This document shows positions 36,737 through 62,924 of a stretch of 64,000 nt of DNA, piece by piece. Every line of letters starts with the position of its first letter. The stretch's first letter is position 1. The DNA comes from a virus. Lineage: Duplodnaviria; Caudoviricetes. The notes under the pieces are model-generated. The model made no database searches. It worked only from the letters and a program-made list of their open reading frames with translations, and had not been told where the DNA came from. The translations under genes and the position numbers were made by a program. The DNA lies in the IMG/VR virus record IMGVR_UViG_3300049740_002155. One strand, written 5' to 3'.

Positions 36737-39268
36737 ATGGCTAGTTGGATTTCAAAAATGTTTCCTGATCTGTTTGGAGGTAGTTCAAATACACAATCTT
36801 CAAGCGATTTTAGAGAATTTGAAAATTCTAAAAGTAGACCAAGTACAAAATACGGAGGTAGTTTAAACGAACGGCTTGATCGTGGGCAAACTATATATAG
36901 AAGTGGTGTTCCATCTCCTGGTGCAAAATCACCAAGTATAGATGACCAAACAAGAAATTTAGACACCCGTGGAACTGGTAAAGGTGTAAACTTTTTTGGA
37001 TATGGTCAAGATACAAAAGCAAATCCATTGGGAGATGCGGTTAATATTTCAACAAATCCATCTGCAACAGGTCGGGTAAAAATATCTGGATTTACCACAA
37101 AAGCATCTCCAAAAATGATTTCTGATTATGGTGGAGGTGAAAATGACGATTCGGTAAAAATAGCTGCGGACAAAAGTGTTTATAGAAATGATCTAAATCC
37201 ACGAAGTTATGGTCGTGAATTTACAAGTAAGGGAATTAGAACTCAAGGTGAATCTGGATTTGAATCGGCATATATTGATAAAGGAACAGAACCCATTGAT
37301 AATTCACGTGAAGTTCAACGAAAAATGGATTTCGTTTCGTATGGTGAAGCATTAGATGGTCAAGGTGATGGTTATGTATCCTATAAGTTTAGTCAAGAGT
37401 ATACAAACTTAAATACAGGTCCTTATGCTAAACCTACAATGGAAACTTGGGTACCGTACCCAGCATACGGTAATATCAATGAATATAAATATCTACCACG
37501 TTTGCAAGGTTTAACAAATAATGATCTTGGAAAAACTTTGTCAGTCGGTAATATAGGTGGTCCTTTTGATAAATTATCGGCAGGTGGTGGTTCGGATGGG
37601 GGAACTAATCCTGCAAATGAAAAAAGACGCATAGTTTCTGCATTAACAAAGCAATCCGGAGATATAGGTTCGGCTGTGGTGGACACGGGTGGTAGTTTTG
37701 TTGAAGTAGAAAATTCATCAATTTCTAATTCATCCCCTCTTTTGGTAGGGAAAACATGGGGAGCACCTTTATCTGTAAACAAAAACTTCAAAGATCAATA
37801 TGAAATTATAAGTAAACCACCAACGGGTGAAGGAAAAGCAACGGAAGAAATGCAAAGTCGTGGTGATAATCGTGTAAACGGAGTAGTTACACCAGTCCCT
37901 AGTACCAATGCCGAACATTCAAAAATTTTGTCACGGGTCGGTATGAGTCTTACGGACAGAATAAATAATCCTTATCATAAAACTAAAAAATCACCACCTG
38001 GTTCTGCTGAAGAACAACAAGGTAATAACGATAAAGGTGAACAATCATTACCAAGAAGTAAAGCAGTATCTTATGTAGATTTGGGTATAGGTAAAAGTGT
38101 TGAAACTATAAGACTAGATGAGTCATTGAAAAAGTTCGGAACGTCATATACTGATAAATTGCGACAAATAGGACAACTCGGTGATTCTGCTGATTTAAAA
38201 GTATATAACGATATTAAAAGTTTAGTGGATTTAAAGCAATTGGCAGAATCATCATTCAATCGCAGGACTAAAGAAAGTGCAGATTTACAGTCACCTGATT
38301 CGGGTCCTACCAGTAAAACATATAATCAAAGATTTTTAGAAAATCCATATCATTTAAATAAAAGAAATATACCAAATTATACAGGTATAGATAGAAAAGA
38401 CCCATTTAATTTAAAAAGTGTATTAGATGCGGAAGATCATTCAATGAACACAGAACCTGATTTTGCAAGTCAGGATTTTATTTCACTTTATTGGCACGAT
38501 TTAGTAAATAAAAAATATATACCTTTTCGTGCATTTATTACTGGAATGAGTGATCAAGCAGATGCAACTTGGCAAAATGTACAATACTTAGGACGTGCAG
38601 ATTCAGTTCACATATACCAGGGTTTTACACGACAATTATCGTGTGATGTACGGGTAGTTGCTCTTAGTATCGAGGAACTACACCCAATGTGGCAACGAAT
38701 TAATTATATGGTAGGACTAACAAAACCAGCTTCCTATACGGAACATGGATTTATCATTCCACCGTTTGTTAGATTTAATTTAGGAGATATATATCGTAAT
38801 CAACCTGTCTTAGTAACAAGTGTTGCAGTTGAGATACCAGCAGAAGCATCCTGGGAACTCGTAAACAACGAAAAAGCAAATGGTCAAGCAGAACGAGACA
38901 AATACGAATTTGCCGCCGGTGATATTAAAAGGAATAATGTTAAGGTTGCAAAATATCCAACAACGTGTGATTTAAAAGTAAGCATGACTGTACTGGAAAA
39001 ATTTACTCCAGAGACAAAGGAAAATCACTTTGGTAATCATCCACTTCATGCAGGTGTGGGAAATGGTTTTAATCAAACATTGACAAAATACGATAATAAC
39101 ACGCAAGATACACAACAAACAACACAGGCACAACAACAATCGGCACAAAGAGGACTAAATGCAGATCAAAATGCATCAAGACAAAGAACTCAAGAAGAAA
39201 GGCAAAACTCATTGTCATCGAGTTCACGAAGAAGTATTCTTGCTAATGTGGCACGAAACGGAATTTAA
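36737..39268 (+). CDS. Baseplate/tail-tube initiator-like protein (gp48/gp54-like C-terminal domain) with long low-complexity N-terminus
   Basis: IPFRAFITGMSD...WQNVQYLGRAD...YQGFTRQLS...PPFVRFNLGD; synteny after the tape measure. Confidence 0.6.
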   Translation: MASWISKMFPDLFGGSSNTQSSSDFREFENSKSRPSTKYGGSLNERLDRGQTIYRSGVPSPGAKSPSIDDQTRNLDTRGTGKGVNFFGYGQDTKANPLGDAVNISTNPSATGRVKISGFTTKASPKMISDYGGGENDDSVKIAADKSVYRNDLNPRSYGREFTSKGIRTQGESGFESAYIDKGTEPIDNSREVQRKMDFVSYGEALDGQGDGYVSYKFSQEYTNLNTGPYAKPTMETWVPYPAYGNINEYKYLPRLQGLTNNDLGKTLSVGNIGGPFDKLSAGGGSDGGTNPANEKRRIVSALTKQSGDIGSAVVDTGGSFVEVENSSISNSSPLLVGKTWGAPLSVNKNFKDQYEIISKPPTGEGKATEEMQSRGDNRVNGVVTPVPSTNAEHSKILSRVGMSLTDRINNPYHKTKKSPPGSAEEQQGNNDKGEQSLPRSKAVSYVDLGIGKSVETIRLDESLKKFGTSYTDKLRQIGQLGDSADLKVYNDIKSLVDLKQLAESSFNRRTKESADLQSPDSGPTSKTYNQRFLENPYHLNKRNIPNYTGIDRKDPFNLKSVLDAEDHSMNTEPDFASQDFISLYWHDLVNKKYIPFRAFITGMSDQADATWQNVQYLGRADSVHIYQGFTRQLSCDVRVVALSIEELHPMWQRINYMVGLTKPASYTEHGFIIPPFVRFNLGDIYRNQPVLVTSVAVEIPAEASWELVNNEKANGQAERDKYEFAAGDIKRNNVKVAKYPTTCDLKVSMTVLEKFTPETKENHFGNHPLHAGVGNGFNQTLTKYDNNTQDTQQTTQAQQQSAQRGLNADQNASRQRTQEERQNSLSSSSRRSILANVARNGI

Positions 39269-39270
39269 TT

Positions 39271-39564
39271 ATGAGATACTCATTTACAGATACAAAGAAA
39301 TCGGAAAATGGAAAATCAGCATCCGAAACTACATTACTACAAAAATTTAAAAGTAGACCAACGGATATTTTTTTGGTGATAGTAGAAAGAACACGATTAG
39401 ATCACTTGGCATTTAAATTTTATGATAATCCAAGTTATTGGTGGATACTTGCACTTGCAAATGGAATAAAAGGAACAATGTATGTTCAACCAGGAACGAG
39501 AATAAGAATACCCGAGAGTGTAAATGAAGTAATCAACGATCACAGAAAAATCAACAATCGATAA
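39271..39564 (+). CDS. LysM-like baseplate wedge protein (gp53-like)
   Basis: RLDHLAFKFYDNPSYWWILALAN...PGTRIRIP. Confidence 0.75.
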   Translation: MRYSFTDTKKSENGKSASETTLLQKFKSRPTDIFLVIVERTRLDHLAFKFYDNPSYWWILALANGIKGTMYVQPGTRIRIPESVNEVINDHRKINNR

Positions 39565-39566
39565 TT

Positions 39567-42500
39567 ATGTTTCCGAGTAGTATAACTAATTTGCTAAAGA
39601 AAAAAGCATCGGATATGATGCCGGCCGGTTTTGACTTCGGTGAACAGGAGCAAGAAGAAGAAAAAAATATTTCAGATTTCGTAAATGATGAAAGTCTCAA
39701 TCCGTTTGCAAAAACTAATAAACCAAGTAGTCTTGCTGATCAAGGATTGAAAAGTTTATTTGGTGGAGGATCATCCAACACAGATAGTGGTGGAGGATTT
39801 TCTGACATGGTCGGTGGTGCATTAGGTGCATTTGGTCTAGGTGGGGGTGATGGAAAAGATTTTCTTGATAAATTAAGAAGTGATAAAAAATCAGACGGAG
39901 GTGAAAAACCATTATTTGAAAGTAAAGACGCCGCAAAGGCAGAATTGCTTACTAAACAAGCAAAACCACCTCCTACCGGAACTCCAATGGATGAATCATT
40001 TCCATCTGGTAATTCTGCACAATTTGGAACTACACATATACGTCCTTGGGTGCGACATGAATTGATGAGAAGAGAACGAAACACTGGTATGAATTATCCA
40101 GATAACGGTCAATATTCTTCGTATGTAGGAGCACCATTGGCAGGTGAAGATGGAGATTTTTCTGAAAGTTATGAGGATACCTTGTATAGAGGACCAAAAA
40201 CTGCTTGGATGCGAGTAGTATCAAATGCAGTTGCAAAGGATGAAAGTGACCCAACTGGAAATAAAAAGTTTTTCGGATTTGAATTGGGTGGAACTGCAAG
40301 CACAAATAAGTCGGCAACTAAATTGGACGATAGGTACGATTCATTTGAAAGAATGTATGGATTTGATCAAGATACTGGTCAGGGTGTAGGAAAAACATTT
40401 ATGGGGTGGGGATATGATTCCACAGATGGTGGTCAGAAAGTCCCTCACATGGTAGAGGAAATGGATTTTAAACACAGACCGTCACCCGGTATAAATTCAA
40501 TTAAATGTGAAGATAAAGATCCTGGTGCAAATATAAGAGAAACTACTGTTTCTTTCACCGTATTTAGTAGATCACAATTAGATTATATTGATGATTATTT
40601 TTTTAAATTAGGAACGACTGCAATTGTAGAGTGGGGGTGGAATACATATCCAAGAGAAAATGTTGTAGATTATAGTAAACTAGGAGCAATACCTCAATAC
40701 GCAAGAGGAAGTCGTGTAAAAGATGAAAACTTACTTGATAAAGTAAATGCAAGACGATTTGAAATGGGAAAAACTGACCCTCTGTCTAAAAAAGATATTG
40801 ACGATGATGTTGTGTATCAATACGGTGGTGGTAACGGTATACTTGGATTGTGGAATGATAGTGTTTTGGCAAATACTGCTCTTAAAAATGGAAAAGGCAA
40901 CTATGCGTTTGCCATCGGATTTCTATCAAGTTATAGTTTTAATTTGCGTGATGATGGTGGATATGATTGTGAAGTAAAAATAACATCACAAGCAGGTGGT
41001 GCGTGTGCTCTTAGTAACGATTCGTCTGGTAAGAAGGGCAAGAAAAAAGAAGATAAAGAAAAAGATAATAAAGAGGATTTTAAATATTTTATTGAAAACA
41101 AATTGGATGAAATCTTGATGGATGAAGGTGACGGAAATGATTTTTGGGATTGGGGTGATTCTGACGATAACGAAAAACACGCAACTAAAATGGCGGGTAA
41201 GGCATACGGAAGATTCTTTCAATTTGATCAAAGCATAGGTGGAAAAGATGCGTGGCACTCTGACCGTGAAGATTGTTATATAACATTCGGTTATTTTATT
41301 GATATAGTTAATTTCTTTTTCTCAAAAAAAATGAGTAAATCTAAGGCAACGGTATTTGAATTTTCCGTTGGTGGTTGTAGATGTGTTGCACATCCCAATA
41401 TAAAATCAACTGACGGAAAGGTTTTATTGATACCAAATGTAACTTCACCCCGATATAACAAAGCAGATAGTGGTGGCTATAAGTTTGGTGAGGGTGGATA
41501 TAAAAGTGATGTTGAAGGTGCAATTATGGAAGAAAGTTTTGAGGGTAATACAGCCGGAGCAGCCGCAGACGCATTTTTTCAAGTTGTAAATGCAGAAATA
41601 AACGAGGGTGGTGGTGGTGATACACGAATTAAATCTCTCAGTGATGCGTTAGATGCTTCCCCCCGTGATGATTTGTATAGTATGCTATCGGCAGCTGCCA
41701 AACGAGCAGTAGAAAGAGGTGATTTACCGAAAGGTGTTACGGATATAATGGTTCGTCCTTTTCCAGATTATGCAACGATTGATGGACAATCCACAGATGG
41801 ATTCAGTGGAAGAATACAAGATTTATTTATAAACTATAATGTCATTAAAGATTCTGTATCAAACGGACAAGATATAAAACAAATAATTAAAGACATTTTA
41901 AAGAAAGCATCAACGGCTGCAGGTGGGGTATGGGATTTTGATGTAGTTGGAGCAGATACTGCGGTTTCAAACAGCACTACTGCAATAATTGTAGATAGAC
42001 GATATTCTGGTCAAACCAATACATACGATATACAAAAAGATGATCAAACATGGAAATTTAAATCTCATACGAAAAATAGTGTAGTTAGGGGATTGTCCTT
42101 AGACATATCCGTGGCACAAGAAACCTCACAACAAACGATTTTTCCAAAAGAAGATCAGAATTCTCAGGCAGATTTTCATTCAAGAGGTAGAATGGATAGA
42201 GTTCTTGACGGAGAAGCCGAGCAAATTGAGGCACAAAAACTCAATGAAGATACCAAACCAGAAGACGAAGATGAAGACGAAGATGACATTGAGTCGGAAG
42301 AAAAATTTATAGTAGGGCAGATGGTGGGTGCAAAATGGATAGATATTGAGTGTGTTGACCCAGACAGAAATCGTATGTTGGCAGGTATGAAGAAAGATAA
42401 TAACAAAAAAAATAGTGTAAAAAATAATATACCACTTGATGGTTGTAAGGTAACACTTGAACTTGACGGAATAGAGGGCATTCGGTTATTAGATGTATTC

Positions 42501-42638
42501 ACCTGCACAGGTGTACCAACACGATACTTTATGAATGGTCATTGGAGAGCACAATCGGTATCACATGAAATATCCAATAATGAGTGGGTAACCACGGTTG
42601 AGGGTGAGTATTTACCAAGTCCGGATACAAGCACATAA
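39567..42638 (+). CDS. Large baseplate hub-like protein (gp27/gp44-type, tentative)
   Basis: 1023 aa after the LysM gene; IVEWGWN and C-terminal LELDGIEGIRLLDVF...WVTTVEG. Confidence 0.5.
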   Translation: MFPSSITNLLKKKASDMMPAGFDFGEQEQEEEKNISDFVNDESLNPFAKTNKPSSLADQGLKSLFGGGSSNTDSGGGFSDMVGGALGAFGLGGGDGKDFLDKLRSDKKSDGGEKPLFESKDAAKAELLTKQAKPPPTGTPMDESFPSGNSAQFGTTHIRPWVRHELMRRERNTGMNYPDNGQYSSYVGAPLAGEDGDFSESYEDTLYRGPKTAWMRVVSNAVAKDESDPTGNKKFFGFELGGTASTNKSATKLDDRYDSFERMYGFDQDTGQGVGKTFMGWGYDSTDGGQKVPHMVEEMDFKHRPSPGINSIKCEDKDPGANIRETTVSFTVFSRSQLDYIDDYFFKLGTTAIVEWGWNTYPRENVVDYSKLGAIPQYARGSRVKDENLLDKVNARRFEMGKTDPLSKKDIDDDVVYQYGGGNGILGLWNDSVLANTALKNGKGNYAFAIGFLSSYSFNLRDDGGYDCEVKITSQAGGACALSNDSSGKKGKKKEDKEKDNKEDFKYFIENKLDEILMDEGDGNDFWDWGDSDDNEKHATKMAGKAYGRFFQFDQSIGGKDAWHSDREDCYITFGYFIDIVNFFFSKKMSKSKATVFEFSVGGCRCVAHPNIKSTDGKVLLIPNVTSPRYNKADSGGYKFGEGGYKSDVEGAIMEESFEGNTAGAAADAFFQVVNAEINEGGGGDTRIKSLSDALDASPRDDLYSMLSAAAKRAVERGDLPKGVTDIMVRPFPDYATIDGQSTDGFSGRIQDLFINYNVIKDSVSNGQDIKQIIKDILKKASTAAGGVWDFDVVGADTAVSNSTTAIIVDRRYSGQTNTYDIQKDDQTWKFKSHTKNSVVRGLSLDISVAQETSQQTIFPKEDQNSQADFHSRGRMDRVLDGEAEQIEAQKLNEDTKPEDEDEDEDDIESEEKFIVGQMVGAKWIDIECVDPDRNRMLAGMKKDNNKKNSVKNNIPLDGCKVTLELDGIEGIRLLDVFTCTGVPTRYFMNGHWRAQSVSHEISNNEWVTTVEGEYLPSPDTST

Positions 42639-42640
42639 AA

Positions 42641-43069
42641 ATGGAAGAATATACTGAAGATTTAGAAGAAAAAGAAAAGTATTTACTTCTCTTAAATAAA
42701 ACAGGAGCAAGTTTGAAACCAACTTATCTTAGTAACAATCCAACAGATAAAGTTGTAGAACCATCGACAGATGATTATATAAAAGGAATGATGAATAGAT
42801 ATTTTGTAGCAAAAGCAAACGATTTATACTCACAGATATATGAAGTAACTCCTGCTGAATATAAACAATTTAAAAAAAATCCATTTTATGTAACCGCAAC
42901 AATGAGGTGGAAAATAACAGGTCCTTTAAAAAATGTTTATGACAGAGGAATTTTAAAAAATCGTGGAGTAGTTGATTTTAATATGGTGTCATATCAGGAA
43001 ATTCAGGCAGTCATGCCACGAATCGACACTAAGATAAGTGCATTGAATCAATTTCACAAAACTGATTGA
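42641..43069 (+). CDS. Hypothetical protein (end of tail module)
   Basis: 142-aa ORF; PSTDDYIKGMMNRYFV. Confidence 0.6.
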   Translation: MEEYTEDLEEKEKYLLLLNKTGASLKPTYLSNNPTDKVVEPSTDDYIKGMMNRYFVAKANDLYSQIYEVTPAEYKQFKKNPFYVTATMRWKITGPLKNVYDRGILKNRGVVDFNMVSYQEIQAVMPRIDTKISALNQFHKTD

Positions 43070-43094
43070 CATTGTTTTTATATTTTAGTATGAT
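43066..43094 (+). promoter_or_regulatory. Sigma70-like promoter; predicted start at ATG 43101 (leaderless)
   Basis: TTGACA-N17-TATGAT; ATG begins 7 nt after the -10 hexamer. Confidence 0.65.
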
Positions 43095-43100
43095 GGAAAC

Positions 43101-44399
43101 ATGACAATTTATGTCGAGACATTAAATGATTTCCAAGATTTTCAAACTGGCATAGCAAACGGAACTTGCTTTTTTCATTTTATTTATGATGAAAGTGTGC
43201 ATCCGATCAAGGTTCAACCATGTGTTTTATTTGTATATCACTTTGAAACTGACAAAACATTTGTATTTTCATTTAATCATCCAGATGTAGTTTGTATAAA
43301 CTATAACATACTAAAAAATTTAGTAAATGTAAATGCAACAAAATTAATTTATGATAAAAAGAATGTGTCACATTTTTGTAATATGAATAATTTTATCGAT
43401 ATTAAATTTGATAGGTATACAAAAACACTTAATGAAATTTCATGTAAACTCCCTGCGTATAAAGATATCAGGTCCTGTCCAATTATGATACTTAAAAAAA
43501 GTTTCGACGATACCTTGAAACTTTTTAAAAATGAAATTTCCAATATAGATGTAGATGCTTATACATTTGAAAACGAATTCTCAAGACAACTATCTAATAT
43601 AGAAAAAAATGGAATTTATGTGAATAGATCAATGTTCAATATAGGAGATGTATCATTGTTAGATGATGATGATCTAATTTATAGTCAATATAATATCTTA
43701 ACCCCAGCGAATAGACCAAGTAATCGTTTTTCAAAAATAAACTTTGCGGCTTTAAATAAAAAGAAAAATGAACGAGATTCCATTTGTAGTCGGTATGAAG
43801 ATGGTGCTATTGTAATGGTGGATTACGAGAGTTATCATTTAAGATTATTTGCAGACTATGTGAGATTTGAATTACCAAAATCTTCTTTGCATGAATACCT
43901 TGGAAAATTATATCACGATAAAGAAACACTAACCGAGGAAGAGTACGAGTTGTCCAAGAAAATTACTTTTAACATAATGTATGGTGGTGTCTCTGATGAT
44001 ATACGTAATAATATTCCGTTCATGGCAAAAATAGCAGATTATGCGGAGAATATGTATAAAAAATATTTAGAAGATGGTTTTGTTAATACGTGGTATTTTA
44101 ATCGTAAGATGAGATACGAAACCTACGGTAAATTAAATCCCTATAAATTATTTAATTATCTTTTACAAAATGCCGAAACTGAACGAAATTGTTTAATGAT
44201 GAAAAATATTCACTCGGTTATTGAGAATACGGATGTTAAATTAATACTCTATCATTACGATGCATTTATATTTGACATGAAGTCAACCGACTTTATTTTG
44301 ACCAAGAAAATTAAAAGTAAACTACACGAAGATGGTAAATTTCCTGTAAAGTTTTATGCGGGAATAAACTATGGCAATATGAAATTAGTTAATGTTTGA
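43101..44399 (+). CDS. Compact family-A DNA polymerase (Pol I-like polymerase domain)
   Basis: Motif A MVDYESYHLRL, motif B SKKITFNIMYGG, motif C LYHYDAFIFD; PANRPSN upstream. Confidence 0.8.
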   Translation: MTIYVETLNDFQDFQTGIANGTCFFHFIYDESVHPIKVQPCVLFVYHFETDKTFVFSFNHPDVVCINYNILKNLVNVNATKLIYDKKNVSHFCNMNNFIDIKFDRYTKTLNEISCKLPAYKDIRSCPIMILKKSFDDTLKLFKNEISNIDVDAYTFENEFSRQLSNIEKNGIYVNRSMFNIGDVSLLDDDDLIYSQYNILTPANRPSNRFSKINFAALNKKKNERDSICSRYEDGAIVMVDYESYHLRLFADYVRFELPKSSLHEYLGKLYHDKETLTEEEYELSKKITFNIMYGGVSDDIRNNIPFMAKIADYAENMYKKYLEDGFVNTWYFNRKMRYETYGKLNPYKLFNYLLQNAETERNCLMMKNIHSVIENTDVKLILYHYDAFIFDMKSTDFILTKKIKSKLHEDGKFPVKFYAGINYGNMKLVNV

Positions 44400-44410
44400 G
44401 AAAAGAATTG

Positions 44411-44418
44411 ATATTTAT
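44411..44418 (+). promoter_or_regulatory. ATATTTAT motif upstream of 44455 and the PrkA operon
   Basis: Intergenic after the polymerase stop. Confidence 0.5.
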
Positions 44419-44454
44419 ATGTATATTTTAATTTTTAAATGGTTATATAAGTAC

Positions 44455-44853
44455 ATGAAAACTCAATTGTTATGCACCTTCTCTCAGATAAATGATTATC
44501 GTATGGTGATTAACAAAATAACAAACTTTTACAAAATAGTATTTGGAAAAGTTTATGTATTGCAAAACAAAGATGATGTAGATGAATTAATGTTGACATA
44601 TAACATCGACGCAGATGTTTGCACTCAATCTAGTTTTTTTCCAGACACAATAAGTGTGCATAGGAAAAAAGATTCAAATACACTTTACACCATTAACTCA
44701 CTTAATGGGTTGATTAAAAAACTTAATAATGGTGTTTTGGACACTGCTTATTCAATAAATTGGAATGACTATAAAAATACAATATTATTGACAGACTCTG
44801 ACAAGGGTGTAAGATTAGTGCCAACAAAACTTTACGAAATCATAAAAATTTAA
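44455..44853 (+). CDS. Hypothetical protein
   Basis: ATG 44455 (MKTQLLCTF) preferred over 44392; HRKKDSNTLYTINSLN motif. Confidence 0.7.
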   Translation: MKTQLLCTFSQINDYRMVINKITNFYKIVFGKVYVLQNKDDVDELMLTYNIDADVCTQSSFFPDTISVHRKKDSNTLYTINSLNGLIKKLNNGVLDTAYSINWNDYKNTILLTDSDKGVRLVPTKLYEIIKI

Positions 44854-44897
44854 TTTATTATTTGACTCACTCACAAAAAAAATATAAGGTAATGGTT

Positions 44898-47000
44898 ATG
44901 GAAAATAAAAAACGACAAAAAGAAAACAAAGAAGACACTCAAAAGCATCTCGCATCGTTAATTACGGCTGATAACAATGATGCGGTAAGCACATATGAGT
45001 CTTTAAATTGGACAGGTACATTTTGGGATTATGTAGAAATGTTGGAACAAAATCCAAGTATTGCAAAAAATTCGTATCAAAGACTTTACGACATGGTTAT
45101 GTCACATGGTGTAGAAGAATTTACTTATTGTAAACGTAAACACATTAAGTATAAGTTTTTCGAGGGTCTTGGGGACATTTCTATTTATGGTCTTGAAGAA
45201 AATTTGATGGAATTTATGGATATTCTTAAAAGTGCAAGTAGACACTATGGACCAGAACGACGTGTTATTTTATTACACGGTCCGGTAGGAAGTAGTAAGT
45301 CAACTATTGTAACTGCACTTAAAAAGGGTCTTGAGCAATACACACAAACTGAAGAAGGTGCTTTATATTCATTCAGTTGGAAGGTTTCTGATAAAGATGG
45401 AAACGAAGTCATTGTTCCATGCCCAATGAATGAAGAACCTTTGAAACTTTTACCAGACGATGTGCGTAATGAAATTATTTCTAGATTAAATGCACAACGT
45501 AGTGATGATGACTATAAACTTAAATTAGATGGTGCATTGAATCCGGTTAATGAGTTTTACTATAATCAATTAATGGAGATGCACGGAGGAGATTACAGAA
45601 AGGTACTCGATCATATTGTCGTACGTCGTGTTACTCTTTCAGAAAAGAATCGTGTCGGAATCGGTACTTTCCAGCCGAAAGACGAAAAGTCACAAGACGC
45701 AACCGAGTTAACAGGTGATATTAATTATCGCAAGTTGGCAGAATACGGAAGTGAAAGTGATCCACGTGCATTTGATTTTGATGGTGAATTTTTAGTATCA
45801 AATCGTGGACTCATTGAGTTCCAAGAAATTCTTAAACTTCAAACTGAGTTTTTATATGACTTGTTGGGTGCTACTCAAGAACACCGTGTTAAACCACGTC
45901 GTTTTAATCAAGTACCTATTGATGAAGTTATTCTTGGACACACCAATAATGCTGAGTTTGAAAAGTTAACAAACAATAAATTTATGGAAGCACTTCGTGA
46001 TAGAACTATCAAGATTGACATTCCTTATCTTCTTAAAATTGACGAAGAAAAGAAAATCTATGATCACTTCTACAACACGGATACTGTAAATAAACACATT
46101 GCACCTCATACAACTTATTTGGCTGCATTGTTTGCAGTTGTAAGTCGTTTGGAAGAAAGTTCAAAGCAAGACATGAGCATCATTCAAAAAGCAAAACTTT
46201 ACAATGGTCAAAGTGTACATGGATTCACAGATGAACACGTTAAAGAAATGCAAGAAGAATCTCCAAAAGAAGGATTGTATGGTGGAGTATCTGCTCGTTT
46301 CGTTCAGAACCAGTTTTCTAATGCAATCGTTAATCCAAGAATGGGTGCTAAGAGTTTGAATCCTTTCATGTTGTTTGCACAAATCCGTGAAGGACTTAAA
46401 AGTTATAGTGGATTTTCATCGGAAGATGATAAGAAGAACATGATGGAACGGCTTGAATCTGTTGAAAAGGAATACGATAGAATTGTGAAACGAGAAGTAC
46501 AACAAGCACTTAGTAGCAGTGAAGAAGCAATAAAAGCACTTTGTACAAATTACATTGATAATATCGTTGCATACATTCAAGACGAAAAAGTTACCAATCC
46601 AGTTACAGGCAAAGAAGAAGTTGCAAATGAACAACTTATGCGTAGTATCGAAGAAAAGATTGGTATTTCCAATGGTATGAAGGATGACTTCCGTAGAGAA
46701 ATTATGAACTATATGGGTGGACTTGCCGCCAAGGGTAAAGAATTCAAGTATGATTCAAACGAGCAACTTTACAAAGCACTTGAAAAGAAGTTATTTGAAG
46801 ATACTAAAGATAGCATCAAGTTATCTGCTCTTGCACAAGATACTGCAACCGTAGTTGATAAAGAACTTCTTGAAAAGATTGACGCACTTAAGCAACGTCT
46901 TATTACATCCTTCGGATATGATGCAGATAGTGCTTCTGATGTTCTTACATATGTAGGTAGTATTTTTGCAAGAGGTGATGCAGACGAAGACGAAGATTAA
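44898..47000 (+). CDS. prkA: PrkA/YeaG-family AAA+ protein (serine protein kinase annotation)
   Basis: LLHGPVGSSKST Walker A, GIGTFQPKDEKSQDATELTG, NRGLIEFQEILK, HTNNAEF, EALRDR, HIAPHT. Start placed at the ATG after AAGGT. Confidence 0.92.
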   Translation: MENKKRQKENKEDTQKHLASLITADNNDAVSTYESLNWTGTFWDYVEMLEQNPSIAKNSYQRLYDMVMSHGVEEFTYCKRKHIKYKFFEGLGDISIYGLEENLMEFMDILKSASRHYGPERRVILLHGPVGSSKSTIVTALKKGLEQYTQTEEGALYSFSWKVSDKDGNEVIVPCPMNEEPLKLLPDDVRNEIISRLNAQRSDDDYKLKLDGALNPVNEFYYNQLMEMHGGDYRKVLDHIVVRRVTLSEKNRVGIGTFQPKDEKSQDATELTGDINYRKLAEYGSESDPRAFDFDGEFLVSNRGLIEFQEILKLQTEFLYDLLGATQEHRVKPRRFNQVPIDEVILGHTNNAEFEKLTNNKFMEALRDRTIKIDIPYLLKIDEEKKIYDHFYNTDTVNKHIAPHTTYLAALFAVVSRLEESSKQDMSIIQKAKLYNGQSVHGFTDEHVKEMQEESPKEGLYGGVSARFVQNQFSNAIVNPRMGAKSLNPFMLFAQIREGLKSYSGFSSEDDKKNMMERLESVEKEYDRIVKREVQQALSSSEEAIKALCTNYIDNIVAYIQDEKVTNPVTGKEEVANEQLMRSIEEKIGISNGMKDDFRREIMNYMGGLAAKGKEFKYDSNEQLYKALEKKLFEDTKDSIKLSALAQDTATVVDKELLEKIDALKQRLITSFGYDADSASDVLTYVGSIFARGDADEDED

Positions 47001-47020
47001 TAGTCAACTGATACATTATT

Positions 47021-48175
47021 ATGCCATCTCGTAGAATTAGAGAAGACCACGGTGAATACAGAGATATCGTCAAGGGTAATGTTGACGAAAAACTCAAAAA
47101 GCACATAAAGGGTGGTCAAAGAATATCACGAAGAGGAAAAGACTTCGTTGTTGTTCGTGTTCCCCATGTAGAACTTCCAAGTTTTCGTTACGGACAACCT
47201 TCCGATGGAAGTGGAATTGGAAACGGAGAAGCAGATGTTGGTGATGAAGTAGGAGAAGGACCACCCCAAGGTCAGGGGCAAGGTGGTCAACCAGGTGACG
47301 GTGGTGAAGGAGAAGGTGAAGGTCACGAAATTGATGTTGGAATTAGCATGGATGCTTATTTTGATATGATTGGTGAAGAACTCCGTCTCCCGAATCTTCT
47401 TCCAAAAGAAAATGGGGAAATGGTAAAAGAAAAAATCAAATGGAATCGAATTGCCAAGGTGGGTAACAACAGTCTACTGCATAAAAGAAAAACTCTTAAA
47501 AATGCATTCAAACGATTGATTTCAACAGGTGACTACGATGAAAAAGATTTATCTAATTTCTATCCCATTAAAGATGACAAAGAATACAGAAGTTGGAGTT
47601 CAGTTGAAGTACCTGACACAAACGCAGCCATATTTTTTGTATCTGATATTTCTGCAAGTATGGACGAAGAAAAACGAGCACTAATTCGTGAGTTGTGTTG
47701 GTATCTTGATAATTGGGTACAAAGATTTTATCAAGAAACACAAGTAAAATATATCGTTCACGATCACCATGCACAAGAAGTTGACCAAGAAAAATTCTAC
47801 AAATATAAAAGTGGTGGTGGGACACAAATCAGTAGTGCGTTTCATTTGGTGAATGATATTGTAGAAAAAGCATTTCCTTTAAATGAATGGAACATCTATG
47901 TATTTTATTTGAGTGACGGAGAAAACTTTGGTTCTGATAACGATTTGTGCGTTGATTATTTAAAAACAATGCAAAAGTATGCGAACCTAATTGGTATTAC
48001 TGAAGTCAAGGCAGTTAGAAGTTGGGCTACATTTTTACCACACATTCAATCTAAATTATCAAGTGGTGAACTTGATCCTAAAACGATTGTAACTGCATCA
48101 ATGGATTCTCCGTCTGATGTATTCAAAACTCTACAAAAATTATTAACACCTGCCGATGAAGAAGTACCTTTTTAA
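47021..48175 (+). CDS. yeaH: YeaH/YhbH (DUF444) family vWA-domain protein
   Basis: Gly-rich linker, LPNLLPK, LHKRKTLKNA, MIDAS FFVSDISASMD, GGTQISSA, WNIYVFYLSDGEN. Confidence 0.9.
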   Translation: MPSRRIREDHGEYRDIVKGNVDEKLKKHIKGGQRISRRGKDFVVVRVPHVELPSFRYGQPSDGSGIGNGEADVGDEVGEGPPQGQGQGGQPGDGGEGEGEGHEIDVGISMDAYFDMIGEELRLPNLLPKENGEMVKEKIKWNRIAKVGNNSLLHKRKTLKNAFKRLISTGDYDEKDLSNFYPIKDDKEYRSWSSVEVPDTNAAIFFVSDISASMDEEKRALIRELCWYLDNWVQRFYQETQVKYIVHDHHAQEVDQEKFYKYKSGGGTQISSAFHLVNDIVEKAFPLNEWNIYVFYLSDGENFGSDNDLCVDYLKTMQKYANLIGITEVKAVRSWATFLPHIQSKLSSGELDPKTIVTASMDSPSDVFKTLQKLLTPADEEVPF

Positions 48176-48178
48176 GTT

Positions 48179-49744
48179 ATGGGAATTGCATGGGAAGTAG
48201 ATAGTTTAAACGAAGGAGTATGTCCAGAATTGGCTGCTCTTATACCTGAGTGTTTACAGGCTTGTTATGATAATGGACTTGATCCATACCCTTTGGTTAT
48301 TGAAGAATTTGATGCTGACGAAATAGTTGAGATTGCGGCCTATGGTGGTTTTCCTGTTCGTTATCCTCATTTTAATTTCGGACAACAATTTGAACAACTT
48401 CATCATCAGTATCACTCTGGTATGGGTAAGATTTATGAGATGGTTGTAAATACTGATCCGACTTATATGTATCTACAACGAAACAATCCTATTGTTGACA
48501 ATTTAACTGTTGTTGCCCACGCAACTGCACATAGTGATTTCTTTAAGAACAACATTATGTTCAAGCATACGAATCGTAATATGATGAATGTCATGGCAAA
48601 TCATAGTGATAAAATTCGGATGTACATGGACCGTTTTGGTAGAAAGAAAGTAAAAGACTTTTTGAATGCGGCCTTGGCAATTGATGATTTAATTGATCCG
48701 TCTTTATGCTACCGTGAAAGTAGTTTAAAGAAAGCAACGAAGTTTAATTTTGAAGACCGACAGCCACGTGAACACGTATCTCGTCTCGAAACGAAAGAAT
48801 ATATGCAGAAGTATGTCAATCCATCTCATTATATTGAGAGACAAAGAAAAGAACGTGAGGAACGACAAAAGTTGGCAGAAAATAAATTTCCATTGAAACC
48901 TGAACGAGATATTATGTTGATGATAATTAACCATTGTCGTTTAGAACCTTGGCAACAAAATATTCTCAGCATGATTCGTGATGAGTCTATTTATTATCGT
49001 CCACAGGGAATGACAAAAGTTCTCAACGAAGGATGGGCAAGTTATTGGGATTCGTATATAATGGCAACTTGCAACTTTGCTGGTGATGACGGAATATTTG
49101 ATTACGCAAAACATCACGCAGGAGTTCTTGGTGGAAAATACAACATGAACAATCCATATAAACTTGGAAATACTTTATTGCGTGATATTGAAGACCGTTG
49201 GAACAAAGGTAAGTTTGGTAAGGAATATGAAAATTGCGACAATGGGGATGAAAAAAGATATTGGAATAAGCATCTCAATCTTGGTCGTGAAAAAATATAT
49301 GAAGTTCGTGAGATGTATAATGATGTTACTTTCTTAAACGAATTTTTTACAAAAGAGTTTTGTGAAAAACATGAATACTTTGAGTATGCTTTAGATAAGT
49401 CAACAAACAAGTATGTTGTAGTAAGCAAAGACTACAAAAAAATAAAAGAGAAACTTGTTAATCGTCATGTTAATATGGGAAGACCTGTAATTTATATGGA
49501 GAATATGAAATATCAAAATACAGAAATCCTACTAAGACATGATTTTGAAGGTCGTCCACTTGATTTAAAATACGCAACCGGTACTATGGCATATCTGCAT
49601 GAAATTATCAAGAAACCAATCAACCTTTTAACTTATGATGTTGAAACTGAGGGTTATGGTGAGAATAAAGAGACAATAGAAGTTGAAGTTCGTTATCGTT
49701 ACAATAACGGTGAACTCAAACGATACGAAGGAAGCAAGATATAA
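48179..49744 (+). CDS. spoVR: SpoVR/YcgB family protein
   Basis: GFPVRYPHFNFG, KIYEMVVNTDP, VAHATAHSDFFKNN, TKVLNEGWASYW, NPYKLG, YNDVTFL. Confidence 0.93.
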   Translation: MGIAWEVDSLNEGVCPELAALIPECLQACYDNGLDPYPLVIEEFDADEIVEIAAYGGFPVRYPHFNFGQQFEQLHHQYHSGMGKIYEMVVNTDPTYMYLQRNNPIVDNLTVVAHATAHSDFFKNNIMFKHTNRNMMNVMANHSDKIRMYMDRFGRKKVKDFLNAALAIDDLIDPSLCYRESSLKKATKFNFEDRQPREHVSRLETKEYMQKYVNPSHYIERQRKEREERQKLAENKFPLKPERDIMLMIINHCRLEPWQQNILSMIRDESIYYRPQGMTKVLNEGWASYWDSYIMATCNFAGDDGIFDYAKHHAGVLGGKYNMNNPYKLGNTLLRDIEDRWNKGKFGKEYENCDNGDEKRYWNKHLNLGREKIYEVREMYNDVTFLNEFFTKEFCEKHEYFEYALDKSTNKYVVVSKDYKKIKEKLVNRHVNMGRPVIYMENMKYQNTEILLRHDFEGRPLDLKYATGTMAYLHEIIKKPINLLTYDVETEGYGENKETIEVEVRYRYNNGELKRYEGSKI

Positions 49745-49747
49745 TAA

Positions 49748-50506
49748 GTGAAACCTTTGGGTGACCAAGTTCATAATTGTGATAATTTATCACTTTTAAA
49801 AAAACTTGATACAAACTGTATTGATTTAATTTATTGTGACATTTTATACGGAACAGGTAAAAAATTTAAAGATTATCAAGATTTAGAACCTGACCGACAG
49901 ATCATTGATACTCATTATATTCCTCGTTTACACGAAATGAAACGAGTATTAAAAACATCAGGAACAATTTATTTGCAAATGGATTTAAGAATTGTTCATT
50001 GGATACGTATTTTGATGGATAGTGTGTTTGGATATGATAATTTTAGAAATCAAATTGTTGTTAAATTTAATATCGGTGGTCGTGGAAAAAAAGAGTTTGC
50101 AAAAAAGCATGATTATATCATAGTTTACACGAAGTCAGACGAGTTTGTTTTTAATGATATGGATATTCGTATTCCATATAAATCCGTAATCAGTAAAAAA
50201 CAAGATAGACCAAACATCACAGACGAAAAATTAAAAATTGGAACGATACCTACAAATGTTTGGGACGATATTCCTTCCGGCCTGAAGGTAAAAAAGGCAA
50301 CTGATTATTATAGTGAAAAGCATCCTAAAATTTTAGAAAGAATAATCAAAGCAAGCAGTAACGAGGGTAATGTTGTTGCAGACTTTTATTGTGGAAGTGG
50401 AACTACATTGGATGTTGCTAAAAGTTTGAACCGTAAATTTATTGGATGTGACATCAACCCAAATGCAGTCAAAATTTCTAAAGAAAGATTGAGCAAAAAA
50501 AGTTAA
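49748..50506 (+). CDS. N6/N4 DNA methyltransferase (beta-type order) with variant catalytic motif
   Basis: DLIYCDILY at the DPPY position; EKHPKILERII and DFYCGSGTT (SAM-binding motif I) in the C-terminal half. Confidence 0.85.
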   Translation: MKPLGDQVHNCDNLSLLKKLDTNCIDLIYCDILYGTGKKFKDYQDLEPDRQIIDTHYIPRLHEMKRVLKTSGTIYLQMDLRIVHWIRILMDSVFGYDNFRNQIVVKFNIGGRGKKEFAKKHDYIIVYTKSDEFVFNDMDIRIPYKSVISKKQDRPNITDEKLKIGTIPTNVWDDIPSGLKVKKATDYYSEKHPKILERIIKASSNEGNVVADFYCGSGTTLDVAKSLNRKFIGCDINPNAVKISKERLSKKS

Positions 50507-50907: not shown

Positions 50908-51738
50908 ATGGCAATTGACCTAGATAAAATCAAAGCAAAACTTACGAACCTCTCTCAGAGTAACAATCGTAAGAACTATCAATGGAAACCCCAACCTGGA
51001 AAGCAACAGGTTCGTATCGTGCCTTACAAGCATCAACCAGATAATCCGTTTATTGAGTTGTTTTTTCATTACGGAATCAACAATCGGACTTATCTTTCTC
51101 CCAAGTCATTTGGTCGTCCAGACCCTATTGTTGAGTTTGCTGAAAAGTTAACTCGTAGTGGAGATAAAGATGATTATCGCATGGGACGTTCTCTTATGCC
51201 AAAAATGAGAACTTTTGTTCCTGTCATCGTTCGTGGTGAAGAAGCAGAAGGTGTTAGGTTTTGGGGATTTGGTAAAGAAGTTTACCAAGAACTATTAGGA
51301 GTCATTGCAGACCCCGATTACGGAGACATTACCGATGCAACTAATGGAAGAGATATTACAATAGAATTTCTTTCAGCAGAAGAAGCAGGAAGGTCATTTC
51401 CAAAGACTAATATTCGTGTTAAACCAAACACATCACCTATATCTGAAAATAAAAATATAGTTGATGGTGTTGCCAACAATCAAGCAGAAATCACAGAGAT
51501 TTATCAAGAATTAAGTTACGATGAATTGAAAGATGCTCTTGAAAAATGGGTAAGTGGAGAAACTGAAGAAGATGCTCCACCTGCCGAGTCAGTCACAGAC
51601 AACGCAGTTGTCGTTGAAGAAACACAAAAAGAAGTAAAGCAACCAACTGTTGCTAGTGCAACTTCTGAACAAAGCAAACCAAACGCAACTTCTACGGAAG
51701 ATGTAGAGGCTGCTTTTGAAGAGTTGTTCAAGTCTTAA
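50908..51738 (+). CDS. gp32: Single-stranded DNA-binding protein (T4 gp32-like)
   Basis: PFIELFFHY, GRPDPIVEF, GVRFWGFGK, DYGDITD, acidic C-terminal tail. Confidence 0.82.
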   Translation: MAIDLDKIKAKLTNLSQSNNRKNYQWKPQPGKQQVRIVPYKHQPDNPFIELFFHYGINNRTYLSPKSFGRPDPIVEFAEKLTRSGDKDDYRMGRSLMPKMRTFVPVIVRGEEAEGVRFWGFGKEVYQELLGVIADPDYGDITDATNGRDITIEFLSAEEAGRSFPKTNIRVKPNTSPISENKNIVDGVANNQAEITEIYQELSYDELKDALEKWVSGETEEDAPPAESVTDNAVVVEETQKEVKQPTVASATSEQSKPNATSTEDVEAAFEELFKS

Positions 51739-61446: not shown

Positions 61447-61848
61447 ATGGATCAAACGGAAAAAATAACAGAACCTTCAGACGAAAAAAGGTTTCTAAAG
61501 TTTTTACCTACAAATCCTTTGAAACATTTAAAACTGCTTATAGTTGTTTTATTGCATTGGGCAGTTGTGATTGGTAATTTTTGTGCATTCTTTATTTTAG
61601 CATTTCAAGGATTTACTCCCTATGGATTTCCGTGGTATGTATGTTTGCCATTATGTTCTTTTATTGCTTTAATTTCATTTTCGAGAGTTCTGGATTGCCC
61701 AATGACTCGGTATGAAAATAAAATGAGAGTGAAACTTGGAAAACCAACAATCAAAGGATTCATAGGTCATTATTTTCTGAAACCGTATGTTCGTAGAAAA
61801 GTGAGAAAAGCAAGAGAGAAACGAGAAGCATCGGGAAAAACAAAATGA
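61447..61848 (+). CDS. DUF2784-like membrane protein
   Basis: Two TM segments (with HW), then CPMTRYENKMR...GFIGHY. Confidence 0.65.
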   Translation: MDQTEKITEPSDEKRFLKFLPTNPLKHLKLLIVVLLHWAVVIGNFCAFFILAFQGFTPYGFPWYVCLPLCSFIALISFSRVLDCPMTRYENKMRVKLGKPTIKGFIGHYFLKPYVRRKVRKAREKREASGKTK

Positions 61849-62924
61849 ATATTAAATTTAAAGAAGCATTTGAGTTTGCGAAGTGGGTATTTGAAAAAAA
61901 TGGTGTACCTGTAAAATACTCAAATATTTGTGCAGATGTATTGTTAAGTGGAGATGAATTGGGTTTCACTACCCACGGACTGAGTAGACTTGGTTATTAC
62001 ATAAAAAGAATTAAAGATAACGTAATTGACGTAAATGCAACACCAGAAATAGTTCGTGACAATAAATCTTGTGTTACTATTGATGGTCATAATGCGTTGG
62101 GTCAAATTGTCGGTAAGTATGCAATGAACCAAGCAATTGCAAAAACACAGCAACATGGAATTAGTTGTGTTGCAGTAAAAAATTCTTCTCACTATGGAAT
62201 TGCGAGTTATTATTCAAGATATGCAACTACGCAAAATTTAGTAGGAATGAGTTTTACGAATGCTCGTCCCGCAGTTGCCCCATATGGTGGATGTGAACCT
62301 AAAATGGGAACAAATCCTTATGCAGTTGCATTTCCATCAGATATGAAATTTCCGTTTAGCATAGATTGTGCTACATCTTCTTATCAACGAGGTGATTTGG
62401 AAGTGATGGCACGGAAAAATCCAAATAGTTATGTTCCTAATTGTGCAATTGTATCTGATAATCAAAATCTTACATTTGAACGTTCTCTTAGGTGGTTAAA
62501 GAAAGGTATAGCCGCATTAACACCAATCGGTGGACACAAGGGTTCTGGATTATCAATTGCGATTGAATTAATGTGTTCTGCTTTTCAAAGTGGTGCCTGT
62601 ATGAGTCAATTAAGTGGTTTATACGAAGGTGATACACAGAATCCTAATTATGACATTGGACATTTCTTTATTTGTATTGACCCTGAAAACTTTACAGACA
62701 TTGATACTTTCAAGAAAAATGTTGGGGATGTAATGCGTGAAATCAAAGCAAGCAAAACTGCTAAAGATACAAATGAAATTTTAGTGCCAGGTGAATTGGA
62801 GTATAATACTTCATTGAAAGTTCACAAAAACGGAATAGAAGTATCTGATGAGTTGCTTGTGGAACTAAATACTCTTGAATTTTCTAAATGGCAAAAGACA
62901 AACACAACAAAAAATTCGAAATAG
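61845..62924 (+). CDS. Ldh_2 family NAD(P)-dependent oxidoreductase (malate/L-sulfolactate/ureidoglycolate dehydrogenase-like)
   Basis: GFTTHGLSRL, IDGHNALGQ, NSSHYG, GTNPYAVAFP, DCATS, GGHKGSGL, VPGELE. Confidence 0.9.
   Translation: MNIKFKEAFEFAKWVFEKNGVPVKYSNICADVLLSGDELGFTTHGLSRLGYYIKRIKDNVIDVNATPEIVRDNKSCVTIDGHNALGQIVGKYAMNQAIAKTQQHGISCVAVKNSSHYGIASYYSRYATTQNLVGMSFTNARPAVAPYGGCEPKMGTNPYAVAFPSDMKFPFSIDCATSSYQRGDLEVMARKNPNSYVPNCAIVSDNQNLTFERSLRWLKKGIAALTPIGGHKGSGLSIAIELMCSAFQSGACMSQLSGLYEGDTQNPNYDIGHFFICIDPENFTDIDTFKKNVGDVMREIKASKTAKDTNEILVPGELEYNTSLKVHKNGIEVSDELLVELNTLEFSKWQKTNTTKNSK

Follow-up and report, generated by a model that had tools for sequence, protein, structure and literature searches.

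The window analysed in this study is a stretch of 64,000 nucleotides (nt) from the virus record IMGVR_UViG_3300049740_002155 (Duplodnaviria, Caudoviricetes), and it encodes a complete set of three bacterial stress genes, prkA, yeaH (also yhbH) and spoVR (also ycgB). The three open reading frames (ORFs) are intact, lie on the plus strand in the order prkA, yeaH, spoVR, and are separated by intergenic gaps of only 20 and 3 nt (coordinates in Table 1). Their identity is supported by Pfam matches well above the gathering cut-offs. PrkA matched PF08298 (AAA_PrkA) with 287.4 bits and PF06798 (PrkA) with 239.6 bits (cut-off 25 each), YeaH matched PF04285 (DUF444) with 226.5 bits, and SpoVR matched PF04293 with 360.8 bits (cut-off 27 each).

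The sequence motifs expected of such proteins are also in place. The Walker A motif of PrkA, GPVGSSKS (G128-S135), is invariant among its relatives, and so are E307, E310, D342, N350 (a candidate sensor) and the arginines R367 and R369 across 13 phage and bacterial sequences. In YeaH, the metal ion-dependent adhesion site (MIDAS) of the von Willebrand factor A (vWA) domain, formed by D209, S211 and S213 (the DISAS motif), T268 and D299, is invariant in 50 phage and bacterial homologues. At the C-terminus of SpoVR, the domain SpoVR_C (PF24755) scored 12.6 bits, below its cut-off of 27.6; 52 of 54 relatives matched it at a relaxed E-value, and the structural model has a C-terminal alpha/beta domain. 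None of the three proteins reached the NCBIfam equivalog models for its cellular counterpart. PrkA scored 212.8 bits against the enterobacterial YeaG model NF011999 (cut-off 576), YeaH 331.8 bits against its best model, NF003711 (cut-off 388), and 220 bits against the YhbH model TIGR02877 (cut-off 468), and SpoVR 148.7 bits against NF008737 (cut-off 679). We assign the PrkA of the window, by its sequence, to the “long PrkA” subtype and not to the YeaG subtype.

The longest frame of prkA opens at a TTG at position 44862, but the start is most likely the ATG at 44898, because an AAGG lies 9 nt upstream of it and the relatives begin at the same ATG. Over residues 17-692, PrkA matched the PDB chain 9xip_A with 717 bits. 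The entries 9xip, 9xiq and 9xir (30 chains) hold a 692-aa cellular “Serine protein kinase”, which is a full-length PrkA homologue and a potential template for the phage protein. A literature search returned nothing relevant for PrkA cryo-electron microscopy and no paper for these three entries.

An earlier interpretation made from the letters of the window alone (the sequence-only reading) had described three full-length, uninterrupted genes in canonical order, with a Walker A motif, an intact DISAS motif and no obvious compositional break toward the rest of the phage genome. All of this agrees with our results. The GC content of the trio is 0.35-0.37 and that of third codon positions (GC3) 0.23-0.27, and its relative synonymous codon usage correlates with that of the other genes at 0.85-0.91, values which are typical of the genome.

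The trio is a genuine part of a phage genome. About 30 independent viral contigs with a PrkA 84-96% identical to that of the window, here called clade A, have the same neighbours on both flanks: upstream three ORFs without assigned function and a small ORF, and downstream a DNA methyltransferase, gp32, uvsX, an exonuclease and dnaB. An assembly chimera with host DNA, named by the sequence-only reading as one way in which its proposal could fail, is therefore excluded. In addition, DNA of this stretch occurs in sequencing runs belonging to at least 12 studies, most of which sampled seawater.

Relaxed selection, another such way, is likewise contradicted, as the trio is under strong purifying selection in the phage. 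For pairs within clade A, accepted at synonymous divergences (dS) of 0.05-2.5 and with a median dS of ~1, the ratio of nonsynonymous to synonymous divergence (dN/dS) was 0.061 for prkA, 0.054 for yeaH and 0.047 for spoVR; clade B, introduced below, had no usable pairs within this range of dS. Across clade A, the conservation of the trio matches that of the replication genes (84-96% vs 75-99% identity), in contrast to the neighbours on the tail side, which are only 30-50% identical in most relatives. One clade A relative (locus L021, 10121-12940) is frameshifted many times across yeaH and spoVR; its alignment to a close relative has 38 gaps in 3 kb, which is probably due to a noisy assembly rather than to gene decay.

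Relatives of the trio also appear in metatranscriptomes. Contigs from four libraries of four studies include pieces 85-95% identical to prkA, yeaH, spoVR and gp32. They are consistent with transcription of the trio copies of relatives, without proving it, as RNA libraries can contain DNA and the contigs give no levels, ends or strand. In the same runs, the word depth over the gene of the gp32-like single-stranded DNA-binding protein (SSB; 50908-51738) reached ~220, compared with ~3-60 over the trio. Such uneven cover suggests an RNA signal rather than carried-over DNA, although contig depths cannot rank genes. There was little or no cover at 43000-44500 and over the methyltransferase gene, from which nothing follows, as genes this diverged would not map at 85% likeness.

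Distribution and descent in phages

The occurrence of the trio in phages is already known, and the copy in the window is one more example of a known, recurrent type of phage gene set rather than a type of its own. Each of the three proteins has a PHROG family. In IMG/VR, at least 168 contigs encode a PrkA relative; 80 of these were fetched, and in nearly all fetched loci with room for it the trio stood in canonical order. The Thermus phages phiYS40, TMA, MN1, phiLo and Lalka carry PrkA. In phiYS40 and MN1 the genes are ordered yhbH-spoVR-(X)-prkA, and two of them are annotated, as serine kinase and SpoVR; phiYS40 has an extra gene for a 616-aa hypothetical protein between spoVR and prkA (L001:4040-5890), which MN1 lacks. 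The Ralstonia jumbo phage RsoM2USA has the trio in canonical order, and its describing paper lists PrkA and SpoVR without remarking on the trio. Huge-phage genomes such as LR756511 carry it as well, and in a virome study of an ocean oxygen-minimum zone (Jurgensen et al.) spoVR was the most abundant “sporulation” auxiliary gene. Thus, at the sequence level, the module is largely documented as a common phage module, which the sequence-only reading had named among the things that would refute its proposal. That reading had also known of no characterised phage version, and here it stands, since our literature search found no functional study of any phage copy and a search for YeaG together with bacteriophage gave nothing relevant.

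In a collection of 5.8 billion proteins, more than 80 clusters were 73-94% identical to the PrkA of the window, after which the identity dropped to 57% or less. When the region was compared with 50,697 phage records by megablast, nothing matched. Besides clade A, two further phage clades were distinguished. Clade B comprises contigs of 222-238 kb with identities of 75-77% for PrkA, 51-55% for YeaH and 58-66% for SpoVR. Its trio is accompanied by genes for PhoH, 6-pyruvoyltetrahydropterin synthase (PTPS) and GTP cyclohydrolase (GCHY-1), a context unlike that in the window. In a 238-kb TARA scaffold of this clade (L084:1-18061), the trio lies by PhoH, PTPS and a GTP cyclohydrolase I of the 7-deazaguanine type, together with an Hc1 histone-like gene.

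Clade C consists of huge phages, with contigs of up to 572 kb, which have the complete trio as in the window at 47-50% identity. Here, the conserved block runs Zn-ribbon gene, prkA, yeaH, spoVR, in many cases ClpP, and then the alpha subunit of DNA polymerase III (Pol III). Of 47 loci, 42 have the Zn-ribbon homologue upstream and 24 have ClpP after spoVR, and neither neighbour was found in clade A, in clade B or in 80 bacterial loci. The Zn-ribbon gene is of the FmdB type, and the Pol III alpha subunit has a PHP domain and sometimes an intein (L086:9511-18220, L088:9563-18732, and others). In some clade C loci, additional ORFs spanning 1.3-4.7 kb separate prkA from yeaH, or yeaH from spoVR. 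The SpoVR of some huge phages reaches 928-938 aa, compared with the usual ~530 (L046:11272-14058, L054:11274-14087, L057:11318-14134), and only its first ~300 residues align to the SpoVR of the window as a single segment. Another sequence of the SpoVR alignment, distinct from these, matches Intein_splicing and LAGLIDADG_3. Hence, the long spoVR copies of huge phages likely carry an inserted intein.

The nearest cellular PrkA proteins are 52-57% identical to that of the window and belong to Myxococcota, Planctomycetota, Bdellovibrionota, Chloroflexota and others. Most of the bacterial “long PrkA” operons (Kofleriaceae, Haliangium and Myxococcus, as well as Planctomycetota, Bdellovibrionota, Chloroflexota and Calditrichota) share the gene order and the tight spacing of the phage trio, and their PrkA aligns over its full length and has all motifs in common with the phage copy. 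The phage trio differs from them in its sequence, as no cellular copy is nearer than ~57%, in its setting between tail and replication genes, and in the methyltransferase gene that follows it.

In all three gene trees (FastTree), clades A and B together form one clade with a support of 100 and a long stem, apart from the 62 nearest bacteria sampled. The trees for YeaH and SpoVR join this clade to clade C (support 93 and 96), whereas the PrkA tree places it beside bacteria with a weak support of 87, so that the deep branch order conflicts between the genes. E. coli YeaG groups with RsoM2USA and LR745206, and not with the clade of the window. The trios of the Thermus phages (permuted order, ~32% identity) and of RsoM2USA (YeaG type, 26% identity), and the copy in LR745206, are best read from these trees as separate acquisitions. 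As far as sequence comparison can tell, the window copy belongs to a phage-only clade, and the phage copies are old and inherited as a unit. Of the two outcomes that the sequence-only reading had hoped for from phylogeny, the phage clade (A and B) was recovered, while no donor can be named.

Predicted fold of SpoVR and its contact with YeaH

The AlphaFold model of the full SpoVR had a mean predicted local distance difference test score (pLDDT) of 84.6 and a predicted template modelling score (pTM) of 0.82, and residues 1-400 folded alone had a pLDDT of 82.6. With Foldseek, no PDB entry matched the model at E ≤ 0.001. An exhaustive VIA-align search against the PDB returned, among its top 50, nearly exclusively zinc metallopeptidases or proteins with the zincin fold, such as DUF885 and YbeY. 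The matched peptidase parts are catalytic domains of the gluzincin type, and the families filling this list were M1, M4, M9, M30, M32 and M3. For the full model, the values were Z 10.4 for 3o0y (DUF885) and Z 9.8 for 4fgm (M1 aminopeptidase); lugdulysin (M30), leukotriene A4 hydrolase, thermolysin, LasB, collagenases, M32 and M3 peptidases, angiotensin-converting enzyme and YbeY were also matched. Residues 1-400 alone reproduced the zincin series, with 3o0y as the best match (Z 10.8, root mean square deviation 3.9 Å, 185 residues aligned) and 18 matches at Z ≥ 8. Further values were up to Z 10.1 for 4fgm and Z 7.9 for thermolysin. The clusters of the AlphaFold DB gave the SpoVR family first, followed by weak SprT-like, DA1 and M48-like matches to residues 14-170.

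The topology of the model agrees with that of a zincin and comprises the strands 39-44, 87-91 and 95-100, followed by a helix (105-124) which bears H114 and H118. Both histidines are strongly conserved (H114 in 53 and H118 in all of 54 sequences), and their spacing of i, i+4 is that of the HExxH motif. On a later helix, 166 residues downstream of the HxxxH, lies the near-invariant N283-E284-G-W-A, in which E284 is a candidate third metal ligand. The NEGWA sequence resembles the NEGFA motif of M1 peptidases.

On these grounds, the fold of SpoVR in the model is zincin-like. We do not file the protein as a zincin peptidase, because in the motif H114-[VA]-x-[GA]-H118 the catalytic glutamate at the second position is found in none of the 54 sequences, because a relaxed Pfam scan of the 54 SpoVR members gave no peptidase family even at an E-value of 10, and because, for a domain made mostly of helices, Z scores of 8-11 are moderate. 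A search of the SpoVR profile against the PDB sequences yielded only a chance match to a designed helical protein, with no SpoVR-like chain and no YeaH partner chain, and a literature search combining SpoVR with metallopeptidase terms returned no paper linking the two among its top matches.

Structural modelling also predicts that the N-terminus of YeaH binds SpoVR. The complex prediction for the two proteins scored 0.80, whereas the highest of three controls reached 0.01. Of 80 solved complexes, 58 reach the mark applied to this score, as do 2 of 110 mismatched pairs, counts which are rough since our own alignments were used. Three runs shared at least 90% of the contacts, and the pLDDT of the partner was at least 73. 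The predicted interface on YeaH is formed by its N-terminal tail (residues 2-16, 44-83 and 104-107) and not by the vWA domain. On SpoVR it involves residues 51-76, 163-171, 320-325, 398-417 and 434-472, the first of which includes a conserved loop with little order in the model of SpoVR alone. Because there is no SpoVR-like chain in the PDB, the score is unlikely to have been carried over from a known complex structure.

Neighbouring genes and upstream elements

The genome in the window is that of a myovirus, and its source is a marine jumbo phage. Upstream of the trio lie the genes for terminase, portal, major head protein, sheath and tape measure, and downstream those for the gp32-like SSB, UvsX/RecA, an exonuclease, the DnaB helicase and ribonucleotide reductase, all on the plus strand. 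The trio is located between the tail/baseplate block and the replication block (Table 1).

Table 1. Features in and around the trio, with positions in the window
Feature	Position	Strand	Remarks
Nearest upstream ATATTTAT motif	44411..44418	+	Ahead of the small ORF or within its beginning
Small conserved ORF directly upstream of prkA	44455..44853	+	No Pfam or PHROG match
Conserved intergenic element TTGACT-N17-TAAGGT	44862..44890	+	8 nt before the prkA ATG
prkA: AAA+ ATPase and PrkA C-terminal domain	44898..47000	+	700 aa; PF08298, PF06798, phrog_22605
yeaH/yhbH (DUF444): N-terminal tail, Gly-rich linker, vWA domain with MIDAS	47021..48175	+	384 aa; PF04285, phrog_19072
spoVR/ycgB: predicted N-terminal zincin-like domain (~residues 1-400) and C-terminal alpha/beta domain	48179..49744	+	521 aa; PF04293, phrog_35217
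N6/N4 DNA methyltransferase	49748..50506	+	PF01555, phrog_67; 3 nt past spoVR, before ssb

The sequence-only reading had put the trio between a phage polymerase and ssb/uvsX. The downstream part of this description is right, with the methyltransferase gene intervening; the upstream part is not supported, as the supposed polymerase, an ORF of 1023 codons at 39567-42638, had no match in Pfam, PHROG or the PDB, and the ESM Atlas groups it with viral hypothetical proteins. It is more likely a tail, baseplate or fibre protein, because it follows the tape measure and evolves fast. The stretch 36737-44399 past the tape measure has three large ORFs (843, 1023 and 432 aa) without a match in Pfam, PHROG or PADLOC. 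Among relatives with flanking genes 85-99% identical, most show only 30-50% identity in these three ORFs, which probably encode hypervariable baseplate or receptor-binding proteins. Toward the end of the window, neither an ORF of the size of Ldh_2 (61845-62924) nor an open frame running off the end (63219-63998) had a PHROG match.

The methyltransferase gene is kept at the same site in every clade A locus whose flank extends that far. It is probably co-transcribed with the trio, and the cellular module does not include it. The small ORF ahead of prkA, for which the longest frame starts at 44392 and in-frame ATGs lie at 44419 and 44455, is present in all clade A relatives, with 53-72% identity and 96% in the nearest. 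A correspondence to the Zn-ribbon gene found before prkA in huge phages was considered and rejected, as the two are not homologous.

Between the small ORF and prkA, the element TTGAC(T/G)-N17-TAAGGT is conserved, with TTGAC, TAAGGT and their spacing kept in 24 of 24 distinct clade A upstream sequences while the flanking coding DNA diverges. Judged by its letters, it could be a sigma-70-like promoter, or TAAGGT could merely carry the ribosome-binding site. Scans of the region for sigma-70-like promoters and for terminators were no richer than those of shuffles, and TTGAC-N14-18-TATAA is not enriched in the window.

The motif ATATTTAT is enriched in the window, with 22 matches compared with 9.1 expected, 18 of the 22 on the plus strand (the sites include 1905, 8504, 12649, 20786, 26965, 59651 and 61434). 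The sequence-only reading had placed the trio downstream of such a motif. A promoter link to the trio did not hold up, as the nearest upstream copy lies 480 nt before prkA, ahead of the small ORF. A role of the motif as promoter is in general uncertain, because several copies are only 4-5 nt ahead of the start codons of structural genes (terminase at 8517, and 20798 and 26978). Unless the mRNAs lack a leader, a usual -10 element would not lie so near, and therefore ATATTTAT may be a translation-initiation or late-promoter signal.

Possible role of the module during infection

The explanation that we favour, with a probability of roughly 45%, is that the phage module promotes the ATP-driven turnover of host cytoplasmic proteins in nutrient-limited cells, as YeaG (SpdA) of Escherichia coli does in starvation. 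The trio would be a phage-adapted copy of the bacterial PrkA(YeaG/SpdA)-YeaH-SpoVR(YcgB) starvation module and would act as one ATP-driven machine. In such a machine, PrkA would act as the AAA+ motor. The adaptor would be YeaH, holding SpoVR with its N-terminal tail and leaving the vWA/MIDAS domain free for PrkA or for substrates, and SpoVR would be a zincin-fold subunit which cuts or clamps polypeptides. By switching on, or replacing, the starvation-induced bulk turnover of cytoplasmic proteins in the host, the module may free amino acids, whose catabolism would yield energy and nitrogen, and so support the production of phage in seawater poor in nutrients. We infer here a complex of all three proteins including PrkA, the degradation of proteins by this complex, and host proteins as its substrate.

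The cellular counterparts give this picture its outline. In E. coli, yeaG, renamed spdA, was shown in 2026 to be required for a starvation-induced, largely non-specific degradation of cytoplasmic proteins, which supplies amino acids and ATP for the synthesis of stress proteins and on which the survival of starved cells depends (PMC13684143). The cofitness of yeaG, yeaH and ycgB is conserved across six bacteria (r > 0.7), their phenotypes relate to the use of amino acids, and E. coli mutants grow better on arginine as nitrogen source (bioRxiv 10.1101/072470). Having the same three Pfam families as the window and being controlled by RpoS and NtrC, the cofit E. coli trio is the best functional model, although it belongs to a different subfamily and its ycgB is unlinked. 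PrkA-YhbH and SpoVR of Bacillus subtilis and Bacillus anthracis are of the same families too; PrkA oligomerises with ATP and needs its Walker A motif to function, whereas the Bacillus genes prkA-yhbH and spoVR belong to the sporulation-specific sigma-E/K regulon and the protease activity is disputed. For B. subtilis PrkA, an ATP-dependent hydrolysis of casein was reported (PMC9512850). Taken together, the cellular module has an established motor and a hydrolytic activity without an assigned active site.

We prefer a machine over a kinase pathway because the SpoVR model is zincin-like and the N-terminus of YeaH is predicted to bind SpoVR. The turnover of host proteins fits the function in E. 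coli, a zincin-like partner, the linkage to ClpP in huge phages and the long infection cycle of a jumbo carrier, RsoM2USA, for which a latent period of 270 min is reported. Of the roles offered by the sequence-only reading, starvation physiology or protein remodelling fits as well, while its dormancy and sporulation frame is weaker than the starvation proteolysis known for E. coli YeaG (PMC13684143).

Several observations weigh against protein turnover by the trio. The E. coli study deleted only yeaG and did not mention yeaH or ycgB (PMC13684143), and the mutant phenotypes of the trio vary among bacteria (bioRxiv 10.1101/072470). Highly purified PrkA of B. anthracis had no protease and negligible kinase activity, and the authors suggested that the protease activity of B. 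subtilis PrkA may stem from a contaminant (PMC13001217). The missing glutamate in the SpoVR motif, the lack of any peptidase match in Pfam and the moderate Z scores belong to this side as well.

The architecture that we propose has a likeness to FtsH/Yme1, Lon and the MoxR/RavA-vWA pairs, namely an AAA+ ring that feeds substrates to a zincin-fold domain or positions them for it, with a vWA/MIDAS adaptor, and B. anthracis PrkA has been placed in AAA+ clade III beside Yme1 (PMC13001217). In contrast to FtsH/Yme1 and Lon, the phage trio, known here from genes and models, consists of three separate polypeptides, and its SpoVR has no HExxH, so that we do not claim membership. A bolder form of the proposal, which we regard as doubtful, would make SpoVR the missing hydrolytic or substrate-clamping subunit of the PrkA/SpdA machine, with a non-canonical HxxxH...NEGWA metal site, tethered by the YeaH tail and powered by PrkA. 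At least two old lineages of large phages, the marine jumbo and the huge phages, would then liquidate the proteome of their hosts to gain building blocks and energy, in a viral analogue of starvation-induced autophagy.

The main rival, possible though we would not bet on it, is that the module is a regulatory switch without bulk degradation. The trio would signal or remodel, with PrkA being either a kinase or an AAA+ protein that remodels a few specific targets, and would lock the host into or out of a starvation or dormancy programme so that the infection completes. PrkA/YeaG was originally described as a serine protein kinase with a kinase-like C-terminal domain (PMC13684143, PMC13001217), and Price et al. 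interpreted the trio as a conserved route of signalling whose outputs depend on the species (bioRxiv 10.1101/072470). Furthermore, B. anthracis PrkA changes the transcription of sporulation genes without detectable protease activity (PMC13001217), and a SpoVR lacking the catalytic glutamate could be a pseudo-peptidase that only binds. The kinase itself is contradicted by the negligible activity of B. anthracis PrkA noted above and by the report that B. subtilis PrkA neither autophosphorylated nor acted as a kinase (PMC9512850). The effect in E. coli is bulk and largely non-specific (PMC13684143). In addition, the zincin-like fold, the histidines kept in 53-54 of 54 sequences and the adjacency of ClpP in huge phages point to proteolysis.

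AAA+/vWA pairs are known maturation chaperones, and the trio could, like MoxR-vWA pairs, remodel or mature phage proteins of the virion, the baseplate or the replication complexes rather than host proteins, for which its position between the tail/baseplate and replication blocks would be apt. The differing contexts in clade B, huge phages and Thermus phages show that it is not tied to one structural module, and the identity of PrkA to cellular proteins which act without any phage argues for a conserved substrate of cellular type, so that we find this improbable. Jumbo phages often carry anti-defence genes, and an ATP-dependent degradation machine could target host defence proteins or disable a co-infecting phage. 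We hold such counter-defence or competition to be very unlikely, given that PADLOC had no match for PrkA and YeaH and only a chance-level one for SpoVR (REase_II, E 0.0056, 14 bits), that the extreme conservation of the trio is unlike that of arms-race genes, and that the cellular homologues are housekeeping stress genes. A manipulation of sporulation, as Jurgensen et al. proposed for viral spoVR in ocean viromes, draws on gene names that come from Bacillus sporulation. It is hardly credible for the window, as the phyla of the nearest cellular relatives are not endospore formers and bacteria that do not sporulate have the trio as a general starvation module. As for a chimera or a decaying passenger, to which the frameshifts of L021 could be counted, the chance is negligible in view of the shared synteny of ~30 contigs from different metagenomes, the independent sequencing runs, the native codon usage and the low dN/dS; the gaps in L021 look like a noisy assembly.

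The turnover of host proteins thus remains our preferred, tentative reading of the trio, and it bears on more than one phage. The PrkA/YeaG-YeaH-SpoVR trio is among the most widespread bacterial stress modules lacking known biochemistry. The phage copies are compact, highly conserved proteins suited to reconstitution, and the zincin-like fold of SpoVR and the predicted contact between YeaH and SpoVR offer mutable targets, which bear on the disputed source of the proteolytic activity of PrkA. That hundreds of environmental phage genomes keep their own copies under strong selection suggests that the recycling of the host proteome may be a general viral strategy in nutrient-poor waters.

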